NCBI GenBank assembly: GCA_900549285.1 | Contig: URNW01000003.1 | Coordinates: forward strand, 7,975-71,974 | From: an uncultured Mycoplasmatota bacterium | GTDB lineage: Bacteria > Bacillota_I > Bacilli_A > RF39 > UBA660 | Length of the DNA: 64,000 bases | Reading direction: 5' to 3' | Part shown: one piece after another, positions 784 to 38,675 of the stretch | Numbering within the stretch: position 1 is the first letter of the stretch | Layout of the letters: each line of letters opens with the position of its first letter | Notes under the pieces: model-generated | Seen by the model: the letters and a program-made list of their open reading frames with translations, nothing else | The model's database searches: none | What the model was told of the DNA's origin: nothing | Made by a program: the position numbers and the translations under genes

Positions 784-834
784 TTTCCCTCCTCTAGTGT
801 ATCTTATGACAATAAAATAATAATGCATAGGTTT

Positions 835-18800: not shown

Positions 18801-18933
18801 CAATTCCCTCTTTAACTTTTCTTTTTACTCTCTCAGAAAGAACAGCTGTCTTTCCTGAACCTGCTCCTGCTGAAATAATAAGATTTGTTCCTTCTTCATT
18901 AATTGCCAGCAATTGTTCCTTCGTCCAATTCAT
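15859..18933 (-). CDS. addA: ATP-dependent helicase/nuclease subunit A (AddA/RexA)
   Basis: UvrD-type motifs GAGSGKT, IDEYQDT, VGDIKQSIYRFRNA, LLENFRSR, HKSKGLEF. C-terminal RecB nuclease motif GIIDLM...IIDYKL. Start at MNWTKEQL. Confidence 0.9.
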   Translation of the reverse strand: MNWTKEQLLAINEEGTNLIISAGAGSGKTAVLSERVKRKVKEGIDIRRILILTFTNEAAGEMKERIRKKLQKENLEESLSFLDSAYITTFDAYAFSLVKKYHYLFDLSSNISIIDSSIINLEKKRILDDIVMDLYEKKDSNYLKLVRDFTDRDDEFIRKYILNISNALDLRYDKKQYLTTYLEKFYSENYVNQIFDEYFEYLKNLVDLIENYFYLLESFLTEKVYQKCYEVLKPIFKPRNYADLHHYQVKLPTIREIDPEGLEIKEELKKLVKELNDLTIYSEEELKNQIFSTKDYVLAIIDIILKLDDRIQEYKKEKNAFEFIDISKMAISIVKEYPDIRDEIKFFYQEIMIDEYQDTNDLQEMFVSEIENHNVYMVGDIKQSIYRFRNANPNIFRDKYDSYKEHICGEKIDLLENFRSRREVLHNINEIFNLIMIPELGGIDFQDHHAMIYGNKVYEEKGHNEENHNLEILQYDNLEKKYTNAEIEAFTIAHDIEEKVKNHYPVYDFDLGKNRDILYQDFCIILDRGKEMTRYKKIFEMFHIPMEIYQDSNLTDKEDILIIKNIIGLILDIKKQEYNKSMRYHFVSIARSYIGNMSDEKIFLALENNTFYEENIYKIAQEIAKNLDFMTPNILLQEIIFRYQFYQQLILVGNIKDAMIRLDYLLDLANSMEMLGFTILDLEEYLNQMIESGMEIRYKEGKSSGNSVKIMNIHKSKGLEFPVCYFAGFRETFNLKDLQSRFMYDSTYGILTPFYKDGIGTLFTKVLIKNKYLEEEIAEKIRLFYVALTRAKEKMIMVVPKFQKENLIKNKIDYLVGIQYRSFYDFLSSISLNLKDYVKVVDLNTLHLSKDYLLKVNKVMQNVDSDGVINFDEIPIDSKVVEKNHASKNILKLITKEEANTLSYGTKIHEMLEQTDFKQVENPNIYVKNLLDTFSFKDADIYQELEFFFMKDNQEYHGIIDLMLEYDDEIKIIDYKLKNIEDDAYVKQLSVYYEYVKSVSDKKISLYLYSIMDHKVKEVEAINL

Positions 18934-21244
18934 CTTCTTCACCTCCAAGTATAACTTCATTCTTTTTTTGCTTAAAGCATAAATCTTTAAACTTACAATA
19001 AGTGCAAGCTACATTCTTTTGATCTACAACTTTTGGATTAATTTCAAATTCACCATTCAAAATATGATCAATTACCTTCTCAATAATTTGATCTACTTGA
19101 ATTAAAAGCTCATCCATTTCTTCATTTGATAAAACCTTTGAAGTAGAACTAAGCGATCCATCTTTTTTAAATTTCAAATTTTGAATAATTTTACTATCTT
19201 GATATTCATCATCTATAAGTTCCATCATCCTCTCATCTGCATTAGTAAATCCTTGTAAACGTAAGCGATCCTCTAGTAATTCTTGCACGCTTTTTTTAAA
19301 CTGTATAGCCTCTTTTTTAGCTAAAACTTTTTGAATATAAAACCCAGCTATAAAAGCCTTACAAAATCGATCAGATTTTTTTAAAAGATATAAATAAATA
19401 GGTAATTGAATATGAAGCCCATATTCTAAATCTTTTAAAGTAATATTAGTATTACCTGTTTTATAATCTACTACAGCTAATATTTCCTGATCTAAAAACT
19501 GATCATACATTACTTTATCAATATTACCTTTAAAAGTAATATCTATATCTTTTCTATCTTTATAAACAAAAAACTCTTGTTCAAATAAATAATGTTTTAG
19601 CTTAGAATGACTTTGTTGAACACGGATAACCTCTAATATCTTCGTTAATTCTTTGCCCAATTCTTCTAAATAAAACATTTCCTTAGCATTTAAAACATAC
19701 TCTTTTTCTTTTATAAATTTCATTATTTCTACAGGAATATCAATATCTTTTAATATGCCAAGTTCTAATATATGATGCATAATACTCCCAACTATTGTTT
19801 TAAAGTTTTCTAAAAAAATATCTAAATGTAAAATTTTACTAATATAATAACGAAAAGCACATTCTTGATACATTTCTAAGTTAGTATAAGATAAAACAAA
19901 CGGCTTTTCTATCTTATTCAAAATTAAATTCTTTGAAATACCTGTAAATTGATTATCATATTCTTGATAAGGAATCTCTATACTATTTTGAAATATTCCC
20001 AAATTATCATGAACAATATTAAACTTATATAAATCATCTAAAGCTTCTGCATATTTAATTTCACTATAAAGTCTTGAATAGGAAACAGTATTAAGAAGAA
20101 AAACAGGTTTTACTTCTACTCCTAATTCTTTAACTAAAACAGAAGGATAAAAGACTCCACTAGAACTTCTAAGTTTATAAGTAATTACTAAATTTTTAAT
20201 ATGATGAATAGATTCTAAAAGAATAGTACTTTGATAATGATTATAATCCATAGAAGTATCAAGTCCTAAGGCATCTTTAATTTCATCAGATAAATAATCA
20301 GTATCTCTCTTAACTTTTGGATATTCATTAATATTAAACCCAAGCATAAAAACATAATCTTCTAAATCAAAAAAAGTACCTAAATTTACCTTTGTAACTG
20401 CATCTTCATATGCGGATTCTTGTATTTTTGTATTTTTAAGATCTTCAATAATAAAAGATTTTCTTTCTATCTTATCATCAATCAAAACCGAACGATTAAT
20501 AATCCGCACTAAGTCACTAACGTTTTGATATTTTTCACTTAAATGCAAAATATTTTCTTCAATAGATAACTGATCATAATTTTCTAAAAATTCTTGAGCA
20601 AGCATAGTACCATAATAAGAGTGTTGATTTTCTTTATTAAAAGGAAGATGAAAAATAGAAAAATATCGCATTAAAATATTATCATAATAAGAAGAAGCTA
20701 TGATTTTAATATGAGACAAAGAAATTCCTTTTCTAATTAACTTCATAATTTCTTGTACTACAAATTCTACTTCTTCTTCTAAAGTAGATGCTTCAAATAT
20801 AGATGGCGTAAAAGTATTAGTAGAATTTTGATAAACAATGGGAACATTCAATTTTTTTAAAATCATATTTTCTTCTTTACTAAGAACTGGAAAACCATAA
20901 ACAACAACTTTTTTATTTTGAAAAAAATGGACAAATTGAGAATGATAAATAAGTAAATGATTAGAATCCAGATCTTTTTTCAGCTGATTTAAAAATTTTA
21001 CTTTACCATAATTTAAATCTTTTAAAAAATATAAATGTTCTAAATAAACTTTTGCAACAGAAACACTGACATGATAATTTCTAACAACATATAGTATTGC
21101 TTGTTCATCATAATCAAAAAATAAATTTCGTTTCAAATCTTGAAAAGTAAAGAACTTTATATTAGTAAATAGATGATTTCTGCTATTCTCTCTTAAAATT
21201 TCTTTTTTATTTTCTTCTGTTGTAATAACAATTGTCTGTTCCAT
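18899..21244 (-). CDS. addB: Helicase/nuclease subunit B (AddB/RexB), compact form
   Basis: Lies upstream of and overlaps addA. C-terminal nuclease motif VVDYKTG plus Cys ligands (ECAFRYY ... CTYCKFKDLC), consistent with the AddB Fe-S/nuclease domain. No clear Walker A at the N-terminus. Confidence 0.8.
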   Translation of the reverse strand: MEQTIVITTEENKKEILRENSRNHLFTNIKFFTFQDLKRNLFFDYDEQAILYVVRNYHVSVSVAKVYLEHLYFLKDLNYGKVKFLNQLKKDLDSNHLLIYHSQFVHFFQNKKVVVYGFPVLSKEENMILKKLNVPIVYQNSTNTFTPSIFEASTLEEEVEFVVQEIMKLIRKGISLSHIKIIASSYYDNILMRYFSIFHLPFNKENQHSYYGTMLAQEFLENYDQLSIEENILHLSEKYQNVSDLVRIINRSVLIDDKIERKSFIIEDLKNTKIQESAYEDAVTKVNLGTFFDLEDYVFMLGFNINEYPKVKRDTDYLSDEIKDALGLDTSMDYNHYQSTILLESIHHIKNLVITYKLRSSSGVFYPSVLVKELGVEVKPVFLLNTVSYSRLYSEIKYAEALDDLYKFNIVHDNLGIFQNSIEIPYQEYDNQFTGISKNLILNKIEKPFVLSYTNLEMYQECAFRYYISKILHLDIFLENFKTIVGSIMHHILELGILKDIDIPVEIMKFIKEKEYVLNAKEMFYLEELGKELTKILEVIRVQQSHSKLKHYLFEQEFFVYKDRKDIDITFKGNIDKVMYDQFLDQEILAVVDYKTGNTNITLKDLEYGLHIQLPIYLYLLKKSDRFCKAFIAGFYIQKVLAKKEAIQFKKSVQELLEDRLRLQGFTNADERMMELIDDEYQDSKIIQNLKFKKDGSLSSTSKVLSNEEMDELLIQVDQIIEKVIDHILNGEFEINPKVVDQKNVACTYCKFKDLCFKQKKNEVILGGEEDELDEGTIAGN

Positions 21245-21265
21245 TTTAATCACTACTCCTAAATT

Positions 21266-21668: not shown

Positions 21669-22419
21669 TTACTCATTTTCTTTTAAATTATTAATTGTTT
21701 CTATAGTTAAACCACTAATTTCCACAATTTCATTAATGGCATATCCTTTTTTTAACATACTTTTTGCTATTTCCTTTTTACCTTGCTCAACTCCAAGTTC
21801 ATATCCTTTATCTTCTGCTATCTCTAAATCTCATTTATTTAATTCTTCTTGAGTTTTATCATCTGCTACATATTTGTGTATCCATTCATTTAATTTCACT
21901 AATAACTCATCTCCTCTGGCTATACTAGATCTTTCATTATTGCTTTTTGCCGCTATAAACTTTAGCCATCTTTCTAATTCATTATTAGTATAGCCTAACT
22001 CTCTTGCTTTGTCAATTTGCACAACTTTGACACAAAACTTATCCACTAATATTTTAATATTATGATTTTTCTCACTTGTTAAGTAAAAATTAGTAATTAA
22101 TTTCTAATTTACTTGCTTGTATCCTCATGACATAATATAAACTTTTATCTAATGAATTCATATTAAAATTAGTATATGCTTCTATATTAACGGTTGTATC
22201 ATCAAACTCTACTATAATATCTCCTCTTACATTCTTTTCGCGCACATTCCCCTTTTTAAGAGGACTTTCATAATGAACCTCTAATTTATCTTTTAAATAT
22301 CCCGAAGGATATTCTAAAATTAATTCTAATAATTTTTCTAATTGGCGACGATTATCTTTATCAGCAAAAGTTTCTTTAAAAATTAAATCATGCATTAATG
22401 TGTCGTTATTTCTGTACAT
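21669..22419 (-). pseudogene. Rpn-family (PD-(D/E)XK nuclease / transposase-like) gene disrupted by a frameshift and a nonsense codon
   Basis: Three collinear fragments: MYRNNDTLMHDLIFKETFADKDNRRQL...GDIIVEFDD..NIEAY; then a +1 frame ..ITNFYLTSEKNHNIKILVDKFCVKVVQIDKAREL...ELNK; then an in-frame TGA and DLEIAEDKGYELGVEQGKKEIAKSML... The TGA aligns with the TGG (Trp) of the copy at 33.6 kb. Confidence 0.75.
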
Positions 22420-22631
22420 AGAATACCTCCTTTCAACAGGTGCAATATAACATAAAAGAAAGAGAGAAGCAAATTGCCAATTTAATATAATTCTTAAATC
22501 AAATTGATAAGTTTTACTAGAAAAATCGATATATTTCATATATCAAATCAATATAATTAGTAAAATTTTATTTTTTAATAATTTAATATGGTCCCTCCTA
22601 ATTAAAGAAATCTAAAGTTACATATTTTCAT

Positions 22632-22657
22632 AAAAAAAGAATGACTTCCGTCATCCT
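22632..22657 (-). terminator. Rho-independent terminator ending the Tad-like locus
   Basis: Minus strand reads GGATGAC-GGAA-GTCATTC followed by T8. Confidence 0.65.
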
Positions 22658-22678
22658 TACACAACAATAAATTGTTAA

Positions 22679-23026
22679 TTAATCTGCATTATCCGTATTA
22701 CATTTACTTGGATTGGTGATACACGTAGCACAAACCTCATATTCACCCTCAACTTCAGAAAAGTCATCAACAATTCTAAAAATAGCACCAATTATTGTTG
22801 GAACAAAGAAAATAATAACTCCAGCAATTGCTCTCATAACTAAAGACTTAACAGAATTCTTTATTTCATCATCTTTACTTGCTACAACCGCTTTTCCTAA
22901 ATCTATCATACCAAATATAATGATTACAATTGGAATTACAATTTTAAAAATCCATAAAACCCAACCAATTACTTGCCAAATTTCTGCTAAATCAGTACAA
23001 ATTGAAGGCTTTGCCATAATTAACAT
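22679..23026 (-). CDS. 115-aa two-TM protein with an acidic, Cys-containing C-terminal tail; candidate structural subunit of the locus
   Basis: Two hydrophobic helices and the tail EVEGEYEVCATCITNPSKCNTDNAD. Has its own consensus promoter and an AGGA SD. No Flp (G/xxxxEY) or class III signal motif. Confidence 0.6.
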   Translation of the reverse strand: MLIMAKPSICTDLAEIWQVIGWVLWIFKIVIPIVIIIFGMIDLGKAVVASKDDEIKNSVKSLVMRAIAGVIIFFVPTIIGAIFRIVDDFSEVEGEYEVCATCITNPSKCNTDNAD

Positions 23027-23115: not shown

Positions 23116-23904
23116 CTAAATATTCATTAACAATAATACCGCAAAGATAAGAAGAACCATAACGCCTAAACCAGTTGTAATAAGCATACTCATAGTTTTT
23201 CCTTCCATCTTATCCAAACGATTTTTATATTTTGTTTCTCTTGCTTTTTGTTGTAAATTAGAGATTGTCTTTGAAAAAGCAAGCAATTGCTCCTGTTTTC
23301 TCTCTTGTCTACCTAAACTCAAACGATAAAGTAAACGCATCATTCTCATAGAATCACGAACTGGATATTTTCTAGCAAATTCCATATAAGGTTCAATTGT
23401 ATCATCACCAGCATTAATAGCATTAATAAGCTCTTTTAACCCATCTTTAAAAATATCAGGAGCATCTTCTAAAGATTTACCTATAGCAACAGGGACCGTA
23501 TAGTGTTGAATCAATATCTCAAGTCCCTTTAAATAATAAGGTAACATTGTATCAATTTCATGTAAGTGCCTCTTATAATAATTTTTTAAATTAATATAAT
23601 CTAACTTAAAGAAAGCAAACCCCACAACAACACAAACTAAAGCATAAACATAAGACATATTAGATATCAGTAAACAAAAAACTAAAACGGTTACAATTAA
23701 AGTATTTCGAATTCTTTTATTAAAAAGTAAATCTGGATTTACTGAATCACCATATTTAGCTTTTACATAAAAATCCCAATCACTCTCTTTTAATCTCCTT
23801 AAATACATTTCATTATCAGCAACAAGTTTATTAATACTAATCTTACCACTATAAGTAAGAATAAAGAAAATAATGACAGCTATAACAGCAATTTCTATTT
23901 GCAT
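23116..23904 (-). CDS. T2SSF-like platform protein (TadC-like)
   Basis: 262 aa. TM helices flank a cytoplasmic helical domain (YLKGLEILIQHYTVPVAIGKSLEDAP..F...L..), with a C-terminal TM helix. Sits directly after a second T2SSF-like gene and the ATPase. Confidence 0.55.
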   Translation of the reverse strand: MQIEIAVIAVIIFFILTYSGKISINKLVADNEMYLRRLKESDWDFYVKAKYGDSVNPDLLFNKRIRNTLIVTVLVFCLLISNMSYVYALVCVVVGFAFFKLDYINLKNYYKRHLHEIDTMLPYYLKGLEILIQHYTVPVAIGKSLEDAPDIFKDGLKELINAINAGDDTIEPYMEFARKYPVRDSMRMMRLLYRLSLGRQERKQEQLLAFSKTISNLQQKARETKYKNRLDKMEGKTMSMLITTGLGVMVLLIFAVLLLMNI

Positions 23905-23905
23905 A

Positions 23906-24802
23906 CTACTCTACCCCCACATTATCATTATAATATTTTTCACCACTAAGCAAAAAATAACAATTAATAATTATAATAGCGTGCAAAACAATATGGACAT
24001 ACCACAAATCCAAAAGCTGCAAATAACTTTCTTTACCAAGTAATACCTGCATAACTAATACTAATAAAAAGAGTACTAAAGCAAAGGTAATAAACTTTGT
24101 ATGAAATTGTTTACGATCCATTTGATCACGATAAACGCCCTCAACTAAAGCATCAATATCCATACTCATATTTTCTAAAGCTTCGCCAGAATCTTTAGCT
24201 CCCTCTTTAGTAATTTGTAGGAAAAGTTGATGCATATTTTTAACCATATAATAAGGATATTTTTGATTAAAATATTCTACCGATTCATCTACTGTACCAT
24301 TTTGATAAGACATATTAATCATTATTTTAACATCTTCTAACACAGGATCTTCCAAAATTCCTGAATCTCGAACTCCTTCTAATGATTTTACAAAACTTTG
24401 AGTCGTATTAAATTCCATAATAACATTTGTAGTATATATTTGAATTTGTTCAAATATATACTCACTATAAAGTCTTTTACTTCTTAAAAAGGCTAAATAT
24501 GGAATAAAAGCAATCGCAATCGCAGTATAAATAATAAGAACAATTAAGCTATAAAAATATAAATAAGCAATCGCAGCAGCTAATCCACCAATAACAACAA
24601 TCTGTAAAGCATAATCTTTTACAGTATATTCTTGCTTTAATTCCTTCATTTTAGCACTAATAGTCCGATAACTATATGGAGCATATTTTTCATAAATTAA
24701 ACCAAATTGAGATTTAATAAACTTATAAAAGGTTTCAGTTCCATCATTTCTACGGTATATAATTATAAACATTGCAATAAGAAATATAATAACAAATTCC
24801 AT
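23906..24802 (-). CDS. T2SSF-like platform protein (TadB-like)
   Basis: 298 aa with the same TM-helical domain-TM architecture, 14 nt downstream of the ATPase gene. Confidence 0.55.
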   Translation of the reverse strand: MEFVIIFLIAMFIIIYRRNDGTETFYKFIKSQFGLIYEKYAPYSYRTISAKMKELKQEYTVKDYALQIVVIGGLAAAIAYLYFYSLIVLIIYTAIAIAFIPYLAFLRSKRLYSEYIFEQIQIYTTNVIMEFNTTQSFVKSLEGVRDSGILEDPVLEDVKIMINMSYQNGTVDESVEYFNQKYPYYMVKNMHQLFLQITKEGAKDSGEALENMSMDIDALVEGVYRDQMDRKQFHTKFITFALVLFLLVLVMQVLLGKESYLQLLDLWYVHIVLHAIIIINCYFLLSGEKYYNDNVGVE

Positions 24803-25939: not shown

Positions 25940-26779
25940 TTATTCATTTGTATTTGTATTAGAATTATTATTGTCATTTACAGTACTAGATGTATTAGCA
26001 TCAGGAATTTCTTGAGCATAAGTTCTAATTAAATTTCTCAAATATTGACTAGAAACAGCCGTTTCACCAGGATTACTACTATAAGAAGCATTTCTTGGAA
26101 CTGGTATTAATTCAAGCCCACTAATATAATTAGCTACACTAAGTAATTGAAATAAATCATCAGGGACCGCAAACAATAATTCAGCTGGAGTAGCAACATC
26201 ACTAGTTAAGAATACACTAACTCCTTTATTATCACGAACATCTTTAATCTCAATACTTTCAATCAATTTTCCAAATACTATTTTACCATCTACTGTCATT
26301 TTTACATATAAATCAATATAATCTCCAGGGTACATTGAATTACCATATGTTGTATGAATATCAACAGCCATTGAAAATAAAGTATAACCATCAGGTATAT
26401 TTTTAGTTGGATCATTTGGTGCTGAACTACAAGAAACTACTTGCTCCTGATAAAAAAGAGCTCCAGATGGAACGCTAGTTCCATAAGTAACACACTTCGG
26501 ATCAGTAGTATTTACTATAGCAGACATATCCGTAATCACATTCTTATTATTAGAAATAAAATCTTTAAGAATGGGTTTTGTTGTAATCATTTCCTGAGTA
26601 ATCTCTGATGTAGCAGTAATTGTCTGTTTAGAAACAGGAACATTAACTGTTGAAATTGCTTGATCTACTCGGTAATTATAACCAACATATAAAACAACGA
26701 TTCCTAATAACACACCAAGTATTGTAATAGTATTTTTATTTGACAAAAAACGTTTAATTGTCGTTACTATATTTCCCAT
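25940..26779 (-). CDS. CpaB/RcpC-like (SAF-domain) pilus-assembly protein
   Basis: N-terminal TM helix. VPVSKQTITATSEITQEMI (SAF-like), PDGYTLFSMAVDIHTTYGNSMYPGDYIDLYV and LLFAVPDDLFQLLSVA parallel CpaB motifs. Asn/Ser/Thr-rich tail. Confidence 0.55.
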   Translation of the reverse strand: MGNIVTTIKRFLSNKNTITILGVLLGIVVLYVGYNYRVDQAISTVNVPVSKQTITATSEITQEMITTKPILKDFISNNKNVITDMSAIVNTTDPKCVTYGTSVPSGALFYQEQVVSCSSAPNDPTKNIPDGYTLFSMAVDIHTTYGNSMYPGDYIDLYVKMTVDGKIVFGKLIESIEIKDVRDNKGVSVFLTSDVATPAELLFAVPDDLFQLLSVANYISGLELIPVPRNASYSSNPGETAVSSQYLRNLIRTYAQEIPDANTSSTVNDNNNSNTNTNE

Positions 26780-27222: not shown

Positions 27223-30200
27223 CTATTTCCAAGATGGACCAATCATATCTTCTTCAGATATACCTTTATCCCATATAGAGAAATATTCAAAATTGTCATC
27301 ACTTTCTGTTCTATAATGATTACCCATTATTAAACTACGATTATTAACAATTTCTAAATTACTTCCAAATGTTTTACCTTCATAAGAAATCACACCATCT
27401 AATAAATCACTAATGAAAGAACTGTAACAAGCGATTTCTTCATAACCATCTAACGCATAACAAGAAAGTGTACTATTAAGATATCCATTATTATAATCTT
27501 TTTCAGCTTCATCATTATACTCTTTTATAGCTCTAGCAGCACTAGGTGTAATTGTAACACTTAAAATTGGTGTTTCATCATAAATACTATTTCCAGCCTC
27601 TTCTATCTCATCAACTGTAGTAGCAGCCTTATCCGTTGCATCACGATTCCAGTTATATGAATTAGTACCATTAGGGAATAAATTATTTAAAGAAACTACT
27701 CGTTCAATTAATGAAGTTCCAGCATCACTATCATAAATACATCCAGCTCCAATACAATCAGCTATACAGTCATCACCATAACATTCATAATCGCAATTTG
27801 GACCCTTACAATCCGCAAAACATTCATCACCAGTACATTCAGTATCGAAATCACAGATAATTGTATCTTCATCTGTAATACCCATATTAACTAGATAAGC
27901 ACATGCGTATTGAACATTTCCATCTTTATCAACAAAGTCTCCATACTCTTCTTTATTGATAACGGCATTTTTACCACCAATTAATCGACCAAGTTTACCA
28001 TTTTGATCATAGTATTCACCTAAATCAGTCATATTAACGGTATATTTATACATTCCTCTTTCAGTACTTAAACTAACAGGTAATTTATTTTCTAATGCAA
28101 TAGCATCATCACGTTTTTCTCCTTCATCAGCACTTATAATTTCACCACTAGGATAAACATTATAGAACAATGTAGACGGTTTATAATTAGCTTCTATAGT
28201 AGAAGTAACCTTTTTATAACGAGCATCAGATATTTCTTGAGTACTTTCCTTTTTATTTGTTCCACAGCCATCAGTATCACAATAAACATAACTTATAGGA
28301 GTATATTTTGTAGATGAAGAAGTTGATTTAGAACATCTATCATATTGAAGTCCTTTTAATTCTGCTTGAGATTCAGAACCATTACTAGAAACATTAGAAT
28401 TACAATACCACTCAGTAGTATCTTTTCCAGAAACAGAGGCATCCATACTTCCATAATCATTAGCTAAATCTGCCAAATAATCCTCTTCATAATCATAGTA
28501 TACTTCTGGTTCATACTCAATTTCAGTTTCCCATTCTGAGCAAGAATTATACTCTTTAATCGTGTTATCATATTCAGTTTTCAAACGTGATAAATTCCTA
28601 CTTGCAGTATCAATTTTGTTTTGAATTTGCTCTTGGTAATCAGATTTTGTATTAACAGTATCTTTAGAATAAGTCGTAGTAGTACAACATCCACCATCTT
28701 CGTAAATTCTTTCATAAGTTACGCTATCTTCAACATCCTTAGAGCCATAAGTTACTTCCATAATACCAGTGGCAAGTTCAGAGTTACTATATTCTTTAGA
28801 AGCAAATCTACTCTCATTATAATAAGCCCAATTCCGTGCAGTTCCTTCTGTTTTCCAAGTACCATAATAACTCAACCAGTCTGTACAACCACTACAACAA
28901 TGAGGATTTAAAACACCACATGTAGATTCTGAGCAAGCGCTACAAGCGGTTCCATAATCAGTTTCATATATTGTAGGTAATAAAGTAGTCCATTTATTAT
29001 ACTCATTCCACCAGTAGGCCATCTCATATTGAATATCTAACATATCCTTATTATACAAGTCTCTATCAATCGTATTAGTATAACATGTTTTGGTTCCTTC
29101 AACCGCAGCACTAAATGTAAAGTATCTACCTGCATTTACAAGTTTAGCAGTAGGCATAGTCATTGTATAATCTTCTTTACAAGAAACAACACAATACTTA
29201 TTTTGTTCTAATGTATAAGAATTTCCTTCGTCATCCACTGCCCCAGGAACTGAGCCTTTATCAGCAGCGCCTTTATCACCATTACGATCTACCTGTCCAT
29301 CAATTTGGCTAACAAAACAAGCGTAAACTTCATCAGGTCCTTTTATATTAACATCATGATTATCTAATGGAGAAACAATCAAATTATTATCAGCATCACA
29401 GCAATCAAAATTATCAACAACTGTAGGGCATTCTACTTCACAAACTGCTCCAAATTCTTCACAAGCATCATCATCTCCAAATGCACATTCTACTTCAAGT
29501 TCTGCACATTCACCACAATCAGCTTCTAATAATTCTTGACATTCACTACTGCCAATATATCCAGATGCAATACAAGCCTCAATTAAATCATCACAATCAC
29601 AAGCATCAATTAAATAAGTCTCATAAGAACTTGTCCAAGGACTAGGATTTCCATCTGACTCATATACGCCCAAATATCTTTGTGCTTCTTTTTCACCAGA
29701 ATACCAAACAACACCTACATATTTACTATACTCACCAAACTCAGAAGTAGTTGAAGTACCACCAATAGAATATTTAATAGGAGCTTGTCCACACTTTAAT
29801 TTATTTATACTATTATTAGTTGTAGATTCATAGCCTTCAAAATGGACTGTAATTTTAACTGTAGTTACACTATTTTCTTTAAAATATCCTAGTGCAACTA
29901 AATCTTGCCCTAAAATCGATTCGATCTCTCCTCTATTAGTCAAAATTGGTCCATTCTCTATTTCAATAGAAGAAATATAACCAGTTAATCCTTCATATTG
30001 AGTATTATTAGCATAACTAATTCCTGTACCATTTGTACCTTTATTAATAATAAATTTATCATTTAAAGATAGATTAGAAACAACAATAGTATGAACTACA
30101 TCTTTTTGAACAAATACACCATCATTTGTTTCAATCTTTTCAACTTCTGTTGCTTGTGGAAGAACAGAAGTAGTATCAATATCAGTAAGAGAACTTAAAT

Positions 30201-31026
30201 TATTAACATACTCTGTAGCTTTTTGTAATGCACTATAATAATAATTTTTAGCATTCGTCATAGCATTTCCACTCGTAGTGCCAAAATAATATTTTGGATG
30301 AGCACTAAAAGTACTACGTGGAGATAAAGATCCAGCGTTTGCTGCACTAAGAGCACTATTTAAATTATCATAATAAGAAGAATTTTCTGTTAACCAAGTA
30401 TTAACAGCTGTTAAATTAGAATAAAATGCTCCTTTATACTCCAAATTAGCAGTATTATATAAACCAAAAGTATACAAAAGTCCTCTAATTGCTACTAATC
30501 TTGAAAAATAATCTTCAATATTTGAACTAGGAGATCCTAATATTCCATGATCTACTAAAACACTCATAACTGCAACGTCAAAAGCCTTTACTTTAACACT
30601 AGAAGAACTGTCTAATAAAAATCTTTCAGCATATAAAGGATTATATCCTTCATATTGTGCATCTAAACAAAATAAAGCTGATCCAACATATTTATCATAA
30701 TAAGAAGAAAAATAACCATTGTTAACCGTAGAGCCATTAACAACATATTTTATCCCAATATCTCTATAATAGTTAGTAGGATTACCTTTAGCAGTATATC
30801 TGTTATTTGTTCCAACTATAACTTTAGAAGTATTAGTTGCAGATTTTAATTGACTAATAACGCCCTTTGCAGATAATATATTACCATTTTTTGTTGAACG
30901 ACACTGCTCAGAACCATAGCCATCACAACTTGCAGGACTATTTGCAAAAGCGGATGCAGATGGTGCCAAAATAACGAATAATAATAAGGTAATAATAAAC
31001 AAACTAGCATTCTTTAACTTTTTCAT
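27223..31026 (-). CDS. 1267-aa secreted protein with three acidic cysteine clusters, function unknown
   Basis: Signal peptide MKKLKNASLFIITLLLFVILAPSASAFA. One uninterrupted 3.8-kb ORF. Cys clusters at roughly 29385..29610, 28875..28955 and 27735..27860. No LPXTG motif or TM anchor. Confidence 0.8.
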   Translation of the reverse strand: MKKLKNASLFIITLLLFVILAPSASAFANSPASCDGYGSEQCRSTKNGNILSAKGVISQLKSATNTSKVIVGTNNRYTAKGNPTNYYRDIGIKYVVNGSTVNNGYFSSYYDKYVGSALFCLDAQYEGYNPLYAERFLLDSSSSVKVKAFDVAVMSVLVDHGILGSPSSNIEDYFSRLVAIRGLLYTFGLYNTANLEYKGAFYSNLTAVNTWLTENSSYYDNLNSALSAANAGSLSPRSTFSAHPKYYFGTTSGNAMTNAKNYYYSALQKATEYVNNLSSLTDIDTTSVLPQATEVEKIETNDGVFVQKDVVHTIVVSNLSLNDKFIINKGTNGTGISYANNTQYEGLTGYISSIEIENGPILTNRGEIESILGQDLVALGYFKENSVTTVKITVHFEGYESTTNNSINKLKCGQAPIKYSIGGTSTTSEFGEYSKYVGVVWYSGEKEAQRYLGVYESDGNPSPWTSSYETYLIDACDCDDLIEACIASGYIGSSECQELLEADCGECAELEVECAFGDDDACEEFGAVCEVECPTVVDNFDCCDADNNLIVSPLDNHDVNIKGPDEVYACFVSQIDGQVDRNGDKGAADKGSVPGAVDDEGNSYTLEQNKYCVVSCKEDYTMTMPTAKLVNAGRYFTFSAAVEGTKTCYTNTIDRDLYNKDMLDIQYEMAYWWNEYNKWTTLLPTIYETDYGTACSACSESTCGVLNPHCCSGCTDWLSYYGTWKTEGTARNWAYYNESRFASKEYSNSELATGIMEVTYGSKDVEDSVTYERIYEDGGCCTTTTYSKDTVNTKSDYQEQIQNKIDTASRNLSRLKTEYDNTIKEYNSCSEWETEIEYEPEVYYDYEEDYLADLANDYGSMDASVSGKDTTEWYCNSNVSSNGSESQAELKGLQYDRCSKSTSSSTKYTPISYVYCDTDGCGTNKKESTQEISDARYKKVTSTIEANYKPSTLFYNVYPSGEIISADEGEKRDDAIALENKLPVSLSTERGMYKYTVNMTDLGEYYDQNGKLGRLIGGKNAVINKEEYGDFVDKDGNVQYACAYLVNMGITDEDTIICDFDTECTGDECFADCKGPNCDYECYGDDCIADCIGAGCIYDSDAGTSLIERVVSLNNLFPNGTNSYNWNRDATDKAATTVDEIEEAGNSIYDETPILSVTITPSAARAIKEYNDEAEKDYNNGYLNSTLSCYALDGYEEIACYSSFISDLLDGVISYEGKTFGSNLEIVNNRSLIMGNHYRTESDDNFEYFSIWDKGISEEDMIGPSWK

Positions 31027-31793
31027 ACTATCTTACTCCTTTGTTTTCTAATTACCACATACGTAATCAATCCCCCAGCAGCAATTATTATAACTACAAC
31101 TATTATAACAATGACCACATTATCTTTTAAAAACTCAATAAATCCATTCTTTTCTTCTTCTGTAACTGGATTTTTTTCTGTTCCATCAGCATTTAACTTA
31201 CCTGCTTTATATTCTTCAGCTAATCTTAAAAAATCTTCATATGAAATATTATCAATAGAAACAGATAAATATTCATGACATAAATAGAAATCTTCAATCC
31301 CATCACAAATAGCTGTCTCACTATAATTATTATACAGAGGTGTAGTTAAATAAGTCGTATAAAGTTTTGTATCAGGGCAATTAGTAGATGTAGAACTATA
31401 AATCTCTATAGTATAATTAGTACTATAAATATAAACAGCTTCATCAAATGATATTACTCCATCTACTGCATCTGAATAAGTATAAGTAGTAGACTGATTA
31501 GTAGATTGATTAGTAACTACAACATATAAATCTTCTGTAATATTTCTAATGTATATTCTAAAATAAGACTTTTTAGGGACATAATTTTCTTGTTCCTCAT
31601 CTGTTAATCCATCTGGCGGATTAAATCCTTCATCTACAGTAATTTCTTTTTCTATAACTTCATAGTCAACACCCACATTTGCAGCCAAACTATTTAGCTC
31701 ATTTGTCTCAGTAACATCACACGCTGCATAAGCATAAGTACTACTGGCTAAAAACAAAAGTAATGCAAAACTAAAAGCTTTCAATTTCCTCAT
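31023..31793 (-). CDS. Secreted protein with a C-terminal TM anchor, first gene of the Tad-like operon
   Basis: Signal peptide MRKLKAFSFALLLFLASSTYAYA, a Thr/Tyr-rich middle, and C-terminal VVIVIIVVVIIIAAGGLITYVVIRKQRSK. Its stop overlaps the next start by 4 nt. Confidence 0.65.
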   Translation of the reverse strand: MRKLKAFSFALLLFLASSTYAYAACDVTETNELNSLAANVGVDYEVIEKEITVDEGFNPPDGLTDEEQENYVPKKSYFRIYIRNITEDLYVVVTNQSTNQSTTYTYSDAVDGVISFDEAVYIYSTNYTIEIYSSTSTNCPDTKLYTTYLTTPLYNNYSETAICDGIEDFYLCHEYLSVSIDNISYEDFLRLAEEYKAGKLNADGTEKNPVTEEEKNGFIEFLKDNVVIVIIVVVIIIAAGGLITYVVIRKQRSKIV

Positions 31794-31818
31794 AGTATAC
31801 ACCAACCTCATAATTTAA

Positions 31819-31847
31819 ATTATAACATGGCTCAATCATTTTTTCAA
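31819..31847 (-). promoter_or_regulatory. Consensus promoter of the Tad-like operon
   Basis: Minus strand reads TTGAAA, 17 nt, (TGT)TATAAT. Confidence 0.6.
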
Positions 31848-31852
31848 TAAAA

Positions 31853-31886
31853 ATAACGCAAAAAGAAGCCATCATAAAGCTTCTTT
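31853..31886 (-). terminator. Rho-independent terminator after the YfcC-like gene
   Basis: Minus strand reads AAAGAAGC-loop-GCTTCTTT followed by TTGCGTTATTTTT. This separates the transporter from the operon downstream. Confidence 0.6.
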
Positions 31887-33324
31887 AAATAATAGTCATT
31901 AGAATAAAAATTACTAATAAACAAATAAACATTCCAAGTAAAAATCTCCATATATATTTTAACCAATCACTAAATTTAACTTTTAATGAAACAAGTCCAA
32001 TTCCTAAAATCATACTAGTTGGAATAAAGAATTGTACAAATCCATATAAAGAAGTAAAAATAGTATAAACAGGTCCCATATAATCAACATATTCAACTGG
32101 TAAATATGATCCCATAACCCAACCTGTAAATCCTAAATCTGTATGGAAAATATTAAGTAATAAAGATGATAAAGTCATAGTTGCAATATTAAAGCTATCT
32201 GTTAAAGTAAGTAATTTATTTACGATAGTAGCCATATAAGTTGATTGATAAACTACAATCATTAACATATATGCACCAACTATACATAAAGATGGAAGAA
32301 TAAGTTTTTTAATTCCATTTATCACTGCCTCAATAAAATCATTCATTTTAAAACGATAACATAAAGCAAGAATAATAGTAAACAACATTAAAAATGCACT
32401 AATGGTAATATTATTCCATGAACCTAAAGCAGTAATACCAGTTCCAAGTAAATCTTTAAAAATAAAGAACTCATTAGAACTTGATCCTATTTTAATATCC
32501 TCCGTAATCAAAGAGTGAAAATTATCAAAAGCTTCAATTCCAAAATTACCCTTCCAATTAACAAAGCCTAAAATACAAATTGCAAACAATACCACTCCTA
32601 CTACTATAATTGGAATCATATTTTTAGTCTTTTTATTTCGCTCTTCTTCAACTTCAACTGAAAACAAATCAACCGTCAAAGCATCCTTTTCTACTTTACT
32701 CATATGAGTTAATATAAAGAAATTAAATAGTAATAAGCCGATTCCTAAAATTCCTCCTCGTACTAAAAGAGCTGGCATTTCATAAGGAGTACTTTGAGTA
32801 TATCCTAAATAATAATTAAACATAGAAATACCATCTGTACCATAAGTAGCACCCATAACTCCTACTAAAATAGAACCAAATGTTGTAGCTAAAATTGTCA
32901 TTTTATCAAATTTTAAACGGTTTAAAATTGAAATAATAAAAGGAACAAAAATTAATACAACAAAAGTCTGAGTAAGTAAACTAGTTAAAGCTGCTAAAAT
33001 AATTGAAATAACCACTACTGCTACTTTTTTATGCTTAATTTTATGAGCAATTCCTGAGACAATTCTTTCATATGCTTGTGTTTTAGTAAGCACACCATAA
33101 AAAGCTCCAATTGCAAATAAAATCACAATTTTATCTACTGCAAAAGATAAAGCATAATAAATAGTATAAGCAATATCATAGATTCCTAACCTAGCCATTC
33201 CTGTTGAAGAATAACCTGTTGAAGTATATCCTCCTGTTGGAATAACCCAAGAAAGAACAAATGCTAATACAACTAATATTAAAACACCTTTTAAAAGACC
33301 ATACTTTTTTTCTTTTTTCTTCAT
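31885..33324 (-). CDS. YfcC/DcuC-like (C4-dicarboxylate anaerobic carrier family) polytopic transporter
   Basis: About 480 aa with more than 10 TM helices. N-terminus KKYGLLKGVLILVVLAFVLSWVIPTGGY resembles YfcC-family starts. Family call is from recollection only. Confidence 0.5.
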   Translation of the reverse strand: MKKKEKKYGLLKGVLILVVLAFVLSWVIPTGGYTSTGYSSTGMARLGIYDIAYTIYYALSFAVDKIVILFAIGAFYGVLTKTQAYERIVSGIAHKIKHKKVAVVVISIILAALTSLLTQTFVVLIFVPFIISILNRLKFDKMTILATTFGSILVGVMGATYGTDGISMFNYYLGYTQSTPYEMPALLVRGGILGIGLLLFNFFILTHMSKVEKDALTVDLFSVEVEEERNKKTKNMIPIIVVGVVLFAICILGFVNWKGNFGIEAFDNFHSLITEDIKIGSSSNEFFIFKDLLGTGITALGSWNNITISAFLMLFTIILALCYRFKMNDFIEAVINGIKKLILPSLCIVGAYMLMIVVYQSTYMATIVNKLLTLTDSFNIATMTLSSLLLNIFHTDLGFTGWVMGSYLPVEYVDYMGPVYTIFTSLYGFVQFFIPTSMILGIGLVSLKVKFSDWLKYIWRFLLGMFICLLVIFILMTII

Positions 33325-33450
33325 AAATTCCCTCCTAACATTGATTATAATACAAATCATTTTAAAAAAAAAGAAAAAAGTGTTATTTTTCTATGAATTT
33401 TTTGTGAAAAATCATTTTAAAAAAGAAAAATATTCTTTTCTTATCAAAAT

Positions 33451-34089
33451 CTAGTCTTTTTCCTTTAACTTTTCTATTTCTTCAACAGATAATCCAGTAT
33501 ATCCAGATATTTTATCTTTTGAAATGCCATCTTTTAACATATTTTTAGCGATTTCCATTCTTTCTAATTCCACTGCATGATTCTTTGCAATTAACATATT
33601 CCATTTGTTTAGTTTCTCTTGTTTCTCTTCATCATTTACATATTTATGTATCCATTCATGTAATTCCATTAATAACTCATCCCCTTTGGCTATCTTTTCT
33701 CGCTCTTTCTCATCTTTTGTTCCAATAAATTTCAACCATTTTTCTAAGACATTTTTAGTATAGTCTAACTCTCTTGCTTTGTCAATTTGCACTACCTTGA
33801 CACAGAAACGATCTTTCCCTAATTTAATCTTTGAATTATGTTCACTAGTAATATAAAAATTCTCTATTACTTCTTCTCCTAAATCCAATTTGCTATTCTC
33901 TATAAAATTGATCTGAATTGTTTTTCCTAATTCATAGTAATGTTCTCCTACTTCTAATTTATTGTGTAAATATCCCACTGGATATTCCAATATTTGTTCT
34001 AATAAAAATTCTAACTGTCTTCTATTATCTGGATTAGCAAATGTTTCTTTAAATAATAAATCATTCATTAACGTATCTTTATATTTCAT
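33451..34089 (-). pseudogene. Rpn-family gene derivative lacking the nuclease core (second copy)
   Basis: The open frame aligns with copy 1 at both ends (MKYKDTLMNDLLFKETFANPDNRRQLE.. and ..DRFCVKVVQIDKARELDYTKN..KWLKFI..GDELLMELHEWIHKYV..KLNKW). The segment equivalent to GDIIVEFDD..NIEAY.. is missing. May still be expressed. Confidence 0.5.
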
Positions 34090-34277
34090 ATATATTTCCC
34101 TTTCCTGCACCCAATATATAAGAAAAAGAAAAAAGAGTCAAATAACCAATTTAATGTCATTCTCTAATCAAATCATATATTTTCATTAATAAAAAAGTGT
34201 TCTTTCATTTATCAAACTAACATATTTAGTAAAAATTAAAAAAAGACAAATTTTCATTCATCTTTTTTAAAATAATT

Positions 34278-36276: not shown

Positions 36277-36948
36277 TTATATTTTATATACTTTATTAGA
36301 TTTTCTACTAAACAAATAAACCACTACTATTGCCGCAAGTCCACCACCAATAGCTACATAAGGAATTACACTTCCTGTCTCACTATTTGGAACATCATTA
36401 GGATTATCAGGATTAGTTGTATTACCACAAACCTGATTATATTCTTCTTCTGAAATAGGATTTCCATTATTATCAAAATAATAACCATCAACTTTTACTG
36501 AACAATTTAATCGATAAGGTGAAACATCTAACATACACCCTGTATCAGCAGTATCAGTAGTCTTAACCGTTATTTTTAAATTAGTAGAACTTCCAGAAGC
36601 TTCAATAAATACATCCCTTGTACCATCACTATTTTCAGGTTGAGAAACAATCACAAAACCAGAACTTACACTAACACTATCAATCTTTACACTGCTTGGA
36701 ATTAATTGAAAATAAATATATTTACTATCCGTATTGACCGAAATAGTCCAAGTCTTTTCTTTTGCTTCTTTATTTGAATAAGTCCAAGTATAATCTCCTG
36801 CTTTAATAGTACCAAACTGTCCAAAAGAAATATCTTCTGTACTAAGATGTGGATCACTTTGAGTAAATCCAGCTGCTAAAACTGTTTGGGGCATAACTAA
36901 TATAGCTACTGCTATAAAACTAAGTATCATAGTAACTCTTCTAATCAT
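36277..36948 (-). CDS. Secreted surface protein with a cell-wall-sorting-signal-like C-terminus (non-canonical motif)
   Basis: Signal peptide ..VMPQTVLAAG. The C-terminus reads VPNSETG, then the hydrophobic stretch SVIPYVAIGGGLAAIVVVYLF, then the basic tail SRKSNKVYKI. Divergent from a sortase B gene. Confidence 0.6.
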   Translation of the reverse strand: MIRRVTMILSFIAVAILVMPQTVLAAGFTQSDPHLSTEDISFGQFGTIKAGDYTWTYSNKEAKEKTWTISVNTDSKYIYFQLIPSSVKIDSVSVSSGFVIVSQPENSDGTRDVFIEASGSSTNLKITVKTTDTADTGCMLDVSPYRLNCSVKVDGYYFDNNGNPISEEEYNQVCGNTTNPDNPNDVPNSETGSVIPYVAIGGGLAAIVVVYLFSRKSNKVYKI

Positions 36949-37034: not shown

Positions 37035-38675
37035 ATGTCAATCTATGATATGATAGTAATGGTGAATAGTGTGAAAAAAATATTAATAAGCATACATAAT
37101 AAAAACATTATTTTTTCCTATAAAACAAATAATAGTTCAATTAATAATGATTTAATAAATACAAATATCATCAGTAACAATGAACTAATTTTTAGTGATG
37201 TCTACATAAAAGAAAACATGAAAATTCTTTCTTCTTTTATTAAAGAATTATCCCTACAGTATAATGTAAATAAAGTAATTATCAGTAAAATAGAATTAGC
37301 TCCTCTTATTTTAAAACTATTAAAAAAAGCAAGCAATATAACAGAACTAGAAATAAAAGAAGAAGAAACATTAACTTATGAAATATGTGAATTACTAACA
37401 CAAATAAATCATATTAAAAGTGTTACTTGCTATAATCTACAACCATTCATGATTGAATTATTAGACAAATTTAATATTACATGTACCTCAAAATGTGAAA
37501 TACTCTATTTAAGCAATTTTATGGAAAAGAACAATTTATTAAGATATTCTAACATTTATTATAAAACTAATATTAGAATCACCTTCCCTCTTTCTTTAGA
37601 GGATTTAAAAGATTTACAAGATTTTCTCAAAATAAATAAATATTTAAAAACAATTCATATAAATAGCCTCATAAATAATGAACTAGAAAATTTAGTAAAT
37701 TTATTAATAAAATATAATCGTAAAAATTTAAAAATAATCATTCACGAAAATATCACAGAAGAAAAAAAAGCAGAATATTTAAAACAAAGAAATAAAATTT
37801 ATAAAAAGAAATATAAAATATATTTATCCTTAGAATATACCAAAGAATACTTAGATAAAAACATTTTTAGGCAAGCGATCACCAACACTTTAAAAGTTTG
37901 TGGACTAATTATATCAAGTCTAGTAATTTTAATAGTAACTTATATAGGTATTTCTAATTATGTAGCCTATAAACAAGTAAATAAAATTAAAGAAAATCTA
38001 GCCGAAGTAATAGAAGAAACTGATCCCAGTACAATTATTAAAGAAAAAAATGAAGAAAACATAGAACAAGCAAAAGAAGAAGAATTAGACCTAAACAACA
38101 TTAAGCCAATTATCAATTCTAATTTAGCTTCTTTACTTTCTGTAAATGAAGATGTAGTTGGAGAACTGGTTGTAAATAACACAAATATTAACTACCCAGT
38201 TGTTCAAGCAGATGATAATGATTATTATCTAGATCATAACATAAATAAAGAAAAGAATGCGAATGGTTGGATTTATCTGGATTTTCGTAATGATTCTATG
38301 AATTTAGATAAAAATAATATTATTTATGGTCATAATATGTACTACAGTGGAGTAATGTTTGGAACACTTCATAAAACGGCTAATGCAAGTTGGTACACAA
38401 ATCCAGAAAATCAAATAATTACTTACAATACTCTATATGAAAATATGCATTTTAAAATATTTTCAATATACCGTGTCCCTAAAACAAACGATTACATCAA
38501 AGTATTCTTTGAAGATGATAATGATTTTCTAGATTTTATAGATATGATAACAAAACGCAGTATATATAATTTTAATGTTCCCGTAAATGCTGATGATAAA
38601 ATCATAACACTATCTACATGCAGTAACAATGGAACTAAAAGATTAGTAATTCATGCTGTATTAATTAATGAATAA
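37035..38675 (+). CDS. srtB: Class B sortase with a ~290-aa N-terminal cytoplasmic extension
   Basis: C-terminal third carries SrtB-type motifs (YPVVQADDNDYYLDHN, NIIYGHNMYYSGVMFGTL, IITLSTCSN, RLVIHA). One TM helix (VCGLIISSLVILIVTYIGI). The N-terminal region is Leu/Ile/Asn-rich and repeat-like. The true start may be the GTG at 37071. Confidence 0.8.
   Translation: MSIYDMIVMVNSVKKILISIHNKNIIFSYKTNNSSINNDLINTNIISNNELIFSDVYIKENMKILSSFIKELSLQYNVNKVIISKIELAPLILKLLKKASNITELEIKEEETLTYEICELLTQINHIKSVTCYNLQPFMIELLDKFNITCTSKCEILYLSNFMEKNNLLRYSNIYYKTNIRITFPLSLEDLKDLQDFLKINKYLKTIHINSLINNELENLVNLLIKYNRKNLKIIIHENITEEKKAEYLKQRNKIYKKKYKIYLSLEYTKEYLDKNIFRQAITNTLKVCGLIISSLVILIVTYIGISNYVAYKQVNKIKENLAEVIEETDPSTIIKEKNEENIEQAKEEELDLNNIKPIINSNLASLLSVNEDVVGELVVNNTNINYPVVQADDNDYYLDHNINKEKNANGWIYLDFRNDSMNLDKNNIIYGHNMYYSGVMFGTLHKTANASWYTNPENQIITYNTLYENMHFKIFSIYRVPKTNDYIKVFFEDDNDFLDFIDMITKRSIYNFNVPVNADDKIITLSTCSNNGTKRLVIHAVLINE

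Follow-up and report, generated by a model that had tools for sequence, protein, structure and literature searches.

What is a 1267-residue exported protein with 45 cysteines for, and why is it encoded next to a secretion ATPase? These questions are raised by a stretch of 64,000 nucleotides from an uncultured Mycoplasmatota bacterium of the order RF39 (contig URNW01000003.1 of assembly GCA_900549285.1, positions 7,975 to 71,974; hereafter the window, meaning the whole stretch analysed). Combining comparison of relatives, remote homology searches and AlphaFold2 (AF2) models, we give about even chances to the following answer: the cysteine-rich protein serves a chromosomal machine of Tad-like (type IV filament-like) kind as its large extracellular component, and is most likely an adhesin stapled by disulfides and headed by a thioester domain (TED), with the thioester and the docking at a tip inferred. 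Coordinates of the gene, its parts and its neighbours are given in Table 1.

The N-terminus of the protein is a classical Sec signal (MKKLKNASLFIITLLLFVILAPSASA, followed by F), and the residue at position -1 of the cleavage site, A26, is kept in 98% of the family. On inspection the signal contains neither a twin-arginine motif nor a lipobox, and a scan of the sequence beyond it revealed no further hydrophobic segment and no LPXTG-like motif. This bears out an earlier note, made from the letters of the window and its open reading frames (ORFs), which had described a clear Sec signal without LPXTG or transmembrane (TM) anchor. The three cysteine segments and the high cysteine density on which that note turned were likewise found where it had placed them: cysteine makes up 3.55% of the protein, the average over the 54 remaining window ORFs being 0.96% (binomial P = 3e-13), and equally dense clusters arise in 0.12% of shuffles of the protein's own sequence. 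The most cysteine-rich ORF of the window is a different one, a 134-residue product without signal peptide (424..828, minus strand) that has 10 cysteines (7.5%) and Cys/Met-rich runs (SCPCNMDMCMPNMMGDM). The start of the cysteine-rich gene, with AGGAG upstream, overlaps the stop of the gene for a 262-residue anchored protein in the ATGA that had been pointed out before.

Direct scans of the cysteine-rich protein against Pfam, NCBIfam and PHROGs returned sub-threshold noise only, namely a phage tail tube family (E = 9e-4) and Relaxase_C. PDB sequence searches with profiles of the near and the far family found nothing, and Foldseek gave no match better than E = 0.09, either for both AF2 half-models against PDB or for the C-terminal half-model against BFVD. 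For the cysteine-rich modules, no known match emerged from the Pfam, NCBIfam, PDB-sequence and Foldseek searches; the homology check that the earlier note had proposed therefore assigns them to no well-characterised family. A published description of the family was not found in the literature.

The earlier note had recognised no domain in the protein. This was overturned by remote homology, which points to a TED-like head in the first 470 residues. As defined by Walden et al. (PMC4450167), the Cys and Gln that make the thioester are the sole fully conserved residues of TEDs. The Cys stands in a [YFL]-C-hydrophobic-hydrophilic motif and the Gln, located C-terminal to the helical core, in a weak hydrophobic-Q-hydrophilic-hydrophobic-hydrophobic motif; both motifs flank that core in beta context, and the Gln is separate from the TQxx-phi-W helix, a motif present in most, not all, TEDs and of which no residue is essential (PMC4450167). 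Among 189 full-length members of the family, C120 and Q449 are the only residues of the head that are 100% conserved, just as in TEDs, with R181 conserved in 99.5%. C120 is found in the context [YF]-C-[LRIM]-[DN]-[AP], with [YF] preceding it in 181/189; in the window protein, F119-C120-L-D122, the Cys ends a model strand (117-120). Q449, in the context Q-R-[FY]-[VIL], is followed by R in 132/189 and then by [FY] in 166/189, and lies at the start of a model strand (450-457), the position before it not being consistently hydrophobic. In the AF2 model of residues 28-477 (pLDDT about 90), five helices across 144-275 lie between beta regions, which reproduces the central helical region of TEDs, with an additional beta region (about 280-440) ahead of the Gln strand.

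Profile searches of distant family members gave further hints. TED is the only Pfam family that is matched repeatedly: 5 of 82 distant members reach E < 0.01 with PF08341 (best 1.1e-5), and one of them, P0106, is alone in exceeding the gathering score (23.5 bits versus 22). The NCBIfam model TQXA_dom matches 2 of 41 distant members at E 0.006 or weaker, and a word-indexed head profile search aimed at annotated TED proteins returned three fragments only. A reading of C120 as the nucleophile of a cysteine protease was rejected because no His or other catalytic partner is conserved. From these motifs and matches we lean, by a little, to a head derived from a TED with a thioester between C120 and Q449, as the best-supported interpretation rather than a finding.

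Stalks of TIE adhesins are made of isopeptide or ester domains, whereas the stalk of the cysteine-rich protein would be stabilised by about 22 putative disulfides. It further differs from TED/TIE adhesins (SfbI, Cpa, TIEpLS20; PF08341) in having no LPXTG and in being encoded with a machine of CpaF type rather than a sortase or a type IV secretion system (T4SS); like them, it is an exported surface protein. In genetic setting it is like TIEpLS20, a TED adhesin without sortase anchoring that is encoded within a secretion-machine operon and used in conjugation of pLS20 (PMC8092201).

The machine itself is suggested by the neighbouring genes. Nine co-directional genes, among them those for the cysteine-rich protein and the ATPase, are bracketed by a strong promoter-like site and a terminator-like hairpin (both consensus matches only), which supports the co-transcription with a secretion ATPase proposed in the earlier note. 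The best solved relative of the T2SSE ATPase is the Tad ATPase CpaF (E = 2e-16), followed by FlaI and VirB11, as expected for the CpaF/TadA type. The CpaB-like protein scores 21 bits with TIGR03177, for which the cut-off is 71, and its orthologue in a distant locus (L041) matches RcpC at E = 1.6e-4. Position, size and topology lead us to infer that the two polytopic membrane proteins are TadB/TadC-like platform proteins; they have no Pfam or PDB match, their sequence does not tie them to T2SSF, and they resemble each other weakly (hhalign E = 0.066). The 115-residue protein encoded last carries one N-terminal Cys and then C-x2-C-x6-8-C at its C-terminus; the protein is conserved from RF39 to L041 and could be the only filament-subunit candidate in RF39.

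DUF5411, present in the window as a short form, is fused in many relatives to a Peptidase_M15 cell-wall hydrolase domain. These long forms have 480-560 residues with a C-terminal Peptidase_M15 (D-Ala-D-Ala dipeptidase / VanY-like, E down to 2e-12; for example L013:13669-15129, L021:13535-15133, L035:13602-15047 and L027:10833-12380), and the fusion fits a machine that must open the wall. Distant relatives additionally carry two or three pilin-like genes of 76-90 residues (MKEATGELN..., Cys-rich C-termini) after the second platform gene. Three of them also have two minor-pilin-like proteins of 150-180 residues and a protein of about 335 residues after the platform genes (L041:17568-20115; L043:22353-23615; L044:21820-24005), and a fourth has only the small pilin-like genes of these extras (L040:16714-17565).

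Large Sec-exported tip proteins of type IV filaments dock by adding a C-terminal beta-strand to a minor pilin, as shown for PilC/PilY1, where the last ~10 residues are used, and as modelled for MshQ; in CpaL the C-terminal strand adds to the protein's own minor-pilin-like domain (PMC13533445). The cysteine-rich protein shares with PilC/PilY1, MshQ and CpaL/TadG a size class (about 1000-1200 residues), Sec export, a non-pilin nature and a place among filament genes, as well as a conserved extreme C-terminus and a division into a variable distal and a conserved proximal part. It differs from them in that Pfam, NCBIfam, PDB-sequence and Foldseek searches detected neither similarity of sequence or fold nor a vWA or beta-propeller domain, and in that minor pilins are missing from the RF39 operon. 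On this analogy, the docking site of the invariant tail may be DUF5411 or minor-pilin-like subunits. A comparable gene set has been predicted in Roseburia, Ruminococcus and Eubacterium as a 'secretion-related' operon (Miller et al., 2022; PMC9523054); it likewise brings together an ATPase of CpaF type, a membrane protein like PilC/GspF, DUF5411 and a large protein resembling an adhesin. That operon, compared here by description only, is a computational prediction and its large protein was described as internalin-B-like, not cysteine-rich or TED-like; beyond it, we found no literature on DUF5411.

The same gene content can be read as secretion. No major pilin can be recognised in the RF39 operon, relatives have DUF5411 fused to a wall hydrolase, the cysteine-rich protein carries a Sec signal and lacks its own anchor, and the analogous clostridial operon was classed as 'secretion-related' by Miller et al. 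(PMC9523054), all of which would suit a cargo (an effector, toxin or nutrient scavenger) that is folded, pushed through the wall by a pseudopilus like that of a type II secretion system (T2SS) and released. We regard such a cargo as unlikely. The protein is constantly paired, and co-duplicated, with a membrane-anchored partner; its extreme C-terminus is invariant, as in docking tails; its head bears the signatures of TED-like adhesins, and no enzyme or toxin domain is detectable with Pfam, NCBIfam, PDB or Foldseek.

How the operon is distributed, and how fast its products change, further narrows the choice. The closest relatives of the cysteine-rich protein come from metagenome-assembled genomes (MAGs) labelled uncultured Bacilli, Tenericutes or 'Mycoplasma sp. 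CAG:776'. CAG-776 belongs to the family UBA660 of the order RF39, which comprises genome-reduced uncultured gut Bacilli (PMC13155120). The Gram-positive anaerobe imagined in the earlier note is hence not a classical Firmicute but a member of an RF39/UBA660 (CAG-776-like) MAG lineage; it is walled, as the window holds sortase-domain and MurJ-like flippase genes. Full-length orthologues number 56, and the family comprises at least 682 clusters at 50% identity (profile of residues 401-1267, E < 1e-3), 321 of which fall below 1e-30. Its distant tier, at about 25% identity, consists mostly of proteins of about 950-1400 residues with a signal peptide and 2-5% Cys.

Wherever the contig reaches far enough, about 40 RF39-like genomes share one order of genes: anchor, cysteine-rich protein, DUF5411, CpaB-like protein, ATPase and the two platform proteins; in 33 of them the 115-residue gene follows the platform genes. 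The same order surrounds relatives at 25% identity (L041, L043, L044). Judged from sequence and gene order, the whole uncultured gut order RF39 has kept the machine, which also occurs in more distant relatives of low identity. In most of the approximately 40 loci the operon adjoins lysS, the lysyl-tRNA synthetase gene. Between lysS and the operon, most RF39-like loci have a gene for a 491-residue polytopic membrane protein without Pfam match (31885..33360, minus strand, in the window), apparently a separate transcription unit; it is absent from L041, L043 and L044.

Within this constant order the products evolve at different rates. Platform proteins are 80-95% identical among most RF39-like genomes (66-69% in the most divergent locus, L040), compared to 35-60% for the cysteine-rich protein and 28-56% for the anchor in the same genomes. 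The genes for the cysteine-rich protein and the anchor are duplicated in tandem as a pair in five genomes (L008, L033, L040, L043, L044), and in all five the heads of the paralogues are 30-61% identical versus 44-86% for the tails. Conservation within the protein is highest in the nine-Cys ladder of cluster 3 and in the final 170 residues (65-71% mean identity), and the segment 549-675 is retained even in relatives at 25% identity. A fast-evolving head on a conserved tail fits a ligand-binding tip on a constant docking module. Between these ends, the AF2 model of residues 660-1046 is elongated, with long beta-hairpins and helices (pLDDT 80-97 for much of it), and the stalk has invariant cysteines at 829, 875, 916, 921 and 1042, with C898 in 82/89 relatives. 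N-terminal to the stalk lies a region (676-825) with a mean identity of 22%, a length of 115-261 residues and 0-14 cysteines (median 8). Cluster 2 and a GGCC motif of this region fall in low-confidence gaps of the model between long beta strands; what the earlier note had seen as a second cluster thus holds as a cysteine-rich region, and its individual Cys positions are poorly conserved.

The long beta-hairpins and helices, the highly conserved C-terminal half and the single copy per operon in most genomes examined would also be expected of a structural part of the envelope, such as a wall-spanning ring, conduit or sheath, which would replace the secretin missing from single-membrane bacteria and bind no ligand. 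Foldseek neighbours include formers of pores and rings (alpha-haemolysin, CsgG and a T2SS part), all at E > 0.2 and hence not significant. We find this role decidedly unlikely for a protein that evolves much faster than the core machine (35-60% versus 80-95% identity), has hypervariable Cys-rich loops and a diverging head, and occurs as tandem paralogues of a kind typical of exposed proteins that face ligands or the immune system.

We then asked of the cysteines themselves what they are likely to do. Across 23 orthologues at 42-78% identity, 34 of the 45 cysteines are invariant, including, with few or no exceptions, every Cys of clusters 1 and 3; about 24 positions are retained in relatives at about 25% identity. 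This result answers the check on orthologues suggested in the earlier note, and excludes drift. Cluster 3 has the spacing x5,x4,x3,x4,x3,x4,x3,x4 in the window protein, and all nine of its cysteines are present in 87/89 relatives. Two of the spacings vary (x3-4 and x3-9), so the strict C-x4-C-x3 period that had been remarked on is true of the window orthologue and is not a family rule. Cluster 3 is not modelled by AF2 (pLDDT 25-36). Cluster 1 is modelled as four helices, three of them with cysteines at i and i+7; in two loci (L006, L009) helices 2 and 3 are deleted together, leaving C-x6-C ... C-x6-C.

The number of cysteines follows a rule. It is odd in 149 of 163 mature family members (p = 1e-29), with totals from 25 to 63 and modal values of 45, 43, 41, 47 and 39. 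Cysteines are therefore gained and lost by twos, and exactly one is unpaired. Moreover, neighbouring cysteines are lost together: 34/42 in 12 sequences, 514/522 in P0009, 916/921 in L038 and 1189/1200 in an L033 paralogue. Fourfold metal sites would also keep parity, but totals would then not differ by twos, and disulfides are favoured. Taken together, parity, pairwise co-loss and the AF2 model indicate that the protein is probably held by about 22 disulfide bonds and that its single unpaired Cys is probably C120. The disulfide scaffold offered in the earlier note is thus the favoured one of its proposals, also in view of the twin C-x6-C helical hairpins; its mention of another Cys-based cross-link may hold too, but for C120 with Q449 (the TED signature), which it had not flagged.

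Twin-CX9C / CX3C (CHCH-type) proteins are disulfide-stapled helical hairpins, and cluster 1 resembles them: its cysteines lie at i/i+7 on consecutive predicted helices, and the co-loss of its inner pair is as expected for antiparallel helices with two disulfides. Cluster 1 has x6/x7 where those proteins have x9/x3, and it belongs to an extracellular protein of a bacterium; the resemblance implies no homology. Metal or cluster binding, the other role that the earlier note had proposed, would have the acidic clusters coordinate Zn, Fe-S or another metal. Clusters so dense and acidic invite this idea, the 12 cysteines of cluster 1 could in principle form three Cys4 sites, and failure to model cluster 3 can occur with cofactor-dependent folds. 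We nonetheless judge it very improbable, given totals that are odd and step by two, and co-loss that is pairwise, not fourfold. The protein has a single CxxC (C504-G-E-C507), no Fe-S or ferredoxin-type motif was found in its sequence, and no His is conserved in the head domain of the 189 members. Sec rather than Tat export disfavours a pre-assembled cluster, and the i/i+7 spacing fits helix-helix disulfides.

Finally, a protein of a phage or other mobile element (a tail or receptor-binding protein, or the conjugation adhesin of an integrated element) is scarcely credible and was rejected, in spite of the weak tail tube match (below cut-off), the weak T4SS_pilin match of the last gene, the Rpn-type nuclease genes that flank the locus and the TED adhesin of pLS20 conjugation, as relatives are absent from viral contigs, plasmids, PHROGs and BFVD, tblastn of the head of a TED-positive family member against plasmids gave nothing, the chromosomal position beside lysyl-tRNA synthetase is shared by most of about 40 species, and relaxase, VirB4 and VirD4 were not seen among the scanned neighbouring genes.

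For a TED-headed, disulfide-stapled adhesin on a Tad-like machine, we hypothesize the following sequence of events. Reading from its signal, the protein would be exported unfolded by Sec and cleaved after A26. Outside the cell it would fold into an elongated molecule with about 22 disulfides, as suggested by Cys parity, co-loss and the AF2 model; these would staple the twin C-x6-C helical hairpins, the Cys-rich segments between long beta strands and the nine-Cys ladder. In the divergent head (27-470), the unpaired C120 and Q449 would form a thioester, to which motifs, invariance and weak profile matches point, and this thioester could bind an amine of a ligand covalently. The C-terminal domain, perhaps through G-P-S-W-K, would then dock to the membrane-anchored partner and/or to DUF5411 or minor-pilin-like subunits, and the machine driven by the CpaF-like ATPase would present the adhesin through the wall, aided in some relatives by the DUF5411-fused Peptidase_M15. 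This last step, by analogy with PilC/PilY1, MshQ and CpaL, is the most speculative one.

Several observations weigh against this proposal. In Pfam and NCBIfam, no TED model matches the window protein at E < 0.1, and the protein stays below every TED model threshold; profile searches of PDB sequences recover no TED, and none is among the 50 best Foldseek matches (all E > 0.09), a weak negative for a query that was the whole 703-residue multi-domain model. C120 and Q449 are 329 residues apart, about twice the spacing in known TEDs. At the Trp position of the TQxx-phi-W helix, 188/189 members have Arg, the equivalent segment being S-R-L-V-A-I-R181 in the window protein and A-T-[SNT]-[IV]-A-[IL]-R in distant members. 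C120 is a probable rather than a certain choice for the unpaired Cys; the window yielded no Dsb-like oxidoreductase, and the bacterium is presumably anaerobic. AF2 models neither the nine-Cys ladder nor the C-terminal domain with confidence (pLDDT 25-55). The pilin-like, minor-pilin-like and ~335-residue genes of distant relatives are missing from the RF39-type operon and the window, and neither a Flp-type pilin (G/XXXXEY) nor a prepilin peptidase was found in either; these absences leave a pilus, and with it a 'tip', undemonstrated in the RF39 lineage.

Table 1. Parts of the cysteine-rich protein and genes and sites of its operon, in window coordinates.
Feature	Coordinates	Strand	Basis
Gene of the cysteine-rich exported protein, 1267 aa	27223..31026	-	ORF and translation; stop codon 27223..27225
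Sec signal peptide, residues 1-26, A-S-A/F cleavage site	30949..31026	-	sequence reading
Head, residues 27-470, TED-like: beta region, five helices, beta region	29617..30948	-	AF2 and conservation
C120 codon, motif F-C-L-D	30667..30669	-	C120 in 189/189
Q449 codon, motif A-Q-R-Y-L	29680..29682	-	Q449 in 189/189
Cys cluster 1, residues 476-548, 12 Cys in 73 aa	29383..29601	-	32% Asp+Glu, no Lys/Arg
Putative acidic four-helix module of cluster 1, residues 476-543, C-x6-C / C-x7-C within helices	29398..29601	-	AF2 helices, invariant Cys
Conserved segment, residues 549-675 (NAGRYFTF, C-x3-C-KEDY), 4 invariant Cys (570, 612, 616, 648)	29002..29382	-	conservation profile
Hypervariable Cys-rich region, residues 676-825, with cluster 2 and GGCC (778-781)	28552..29001	-	conservation, model
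Cys cluster 2, residues 692-714, 6 Cys	28885..28953	-	inside hypervariable region
Stalk, residues 826-1045, long beta-hairpins and long helices	27892..28551	-	AF2, Cys conservation
Cys cluster 3, residues 1058-1096, nine-Cys ladder, four C-x-G-x-x-C-x-x-[DE] nonapeptides	27739..27855	-	sequence
Conserved C-terminal domain, residues 1097-1267	27226..27738	-	65% mean identity
Terminal motif G-P-[SA]-W-[KR]-COOH	27226..27240	-	about 94% of 197 members
Promoter-like site TTGAAA-17-TATAAT with TG, upstream of the anchor gene	31819..31847	-	consensus match only
Cognate partner (anchor), 262 aa: signal peptide, beta-rich ectodomain, 4 conserved Cys, C-terminal TM anchor	31023..31811	-	stop overlaps start of cysteine-rich gene
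DUF5411 membrane-anchored protein, 138 aa	26789..27205	-	PF17424, E = 8e-53
CpaB/RcpC-like protein, 279 aa, N-terminal TM	25940..26779	-	TIGR03177 E = 1.5e-4, RcpC E = 0.02, below cut-off
Secretion ATPase, CpaF/TadA-VirB11 class, 362 aa	24817..25905	-	PF00437, E = 7e-27
Two polytopic membrane proteins, 298 aa and 262 aa, TadB/TadC-like platform (inferred)	23116..24802	-	position, size, topology
Last operon gene, 115-aa two-TM hairpin protein, 4 invariant Cys	22679..23026	-	PF18895 T4SS_pilin E = 4e-4, below cut-off
Terminator-like hairpin and T-run after the last gene	22637..22658	-	consensus match only

Other genes of the window were recorded along the way. The locus is flanked by two paralogous genes for Rpn / PD-(D/E)XK_2 'transposase-like' nucleases on the minus strand (22090..22539 and 33451..34110), the first of which looks truncated (149 residues); about nine other loci (for example L002, L004, L018, L032 and L039) likewise have such genes close to the operon. 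Past the truncated Rpn-like gene, at about 1.4 kb downstream of the operon, an AddA/AddB-type helicase-nuclease pair is encoded (UvrD helicase, PD-(D/E)XK_1; 15859..21253, minus strand). Another putative surface protein, of 615 residues (45983..47830, minus strand), has three Listeria-Bacteroides repeats (Flg_new, E = 3e-48) and 13 cysteines. Upstream of lysS, a gene conserved in 23 related loci encodes a 223-residue exported protein (36277..36948, minus strand) with a sorting-like end (...VPNSETG, a hydrophobic stretch, SRKSNKVYKI); it shows no detectable relation to the 262-residue anchor of the operon. The 546-residue product of its divergent neighbour (37035..38675, plus strand) has a sortase domain at the C-terminus and a long extension at the N-terminus, and the two proteins may form a dedicated pair of substrate and sortase with a non-LPXTG motif.

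Thioester-type adhesins and large proteins associated with type IV filaments are both known kinds; what would be novel here is their combination, together with the disulfide modules. For protein science, the locus would offer a TED-like head of unusual architecture, with an invariant Arg and 329 residues between Cys and Gln, and new disulfide modules without PDB match, namely twin-CX6C acidic hairpins and a nine-Cys nonapeptide ladder that AF2 leaves unmodelled. The odd-Cys rule is a clean statistical signature that could be reused to find proteins in which one Cys is reactive among many structural ones. A further question is how some 44 exported thiols in each molecule become oxidised in an anaerobe for which the examined sequence shows no Dsb-like gene.

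Widespread in the guts of humans and animals, RF39 bacteria are uncultured and genome-reduced, and a dependence on a host or on other microbes is suspected (PMC13155120). An operon whose largest product resembles a covalent adhesin is a concrete, testable candidate for the basis of this dependence, and a handle for enrichment or labelling. A bolder proposal, held tentatively and in our estimate more apt to fail than to stand, is that RF39 and related lineages share a universal chromosomal attachment organelle, in which a type IV filament-like motor displays a thioester adhesin on a stalk with about 22 disulfides. If true, this would be the first link of thioester adhesion to a type IV filament machine and the first surface protein system with heavy disulfide bonding in a Firmicute-type gut bacterium that is an obligate anaerobe. 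It would also provide a candidate mechanism by which the nucleotide-auxotrophic, genome-reduced RF39 bacteria hold on to a host or partner cell.

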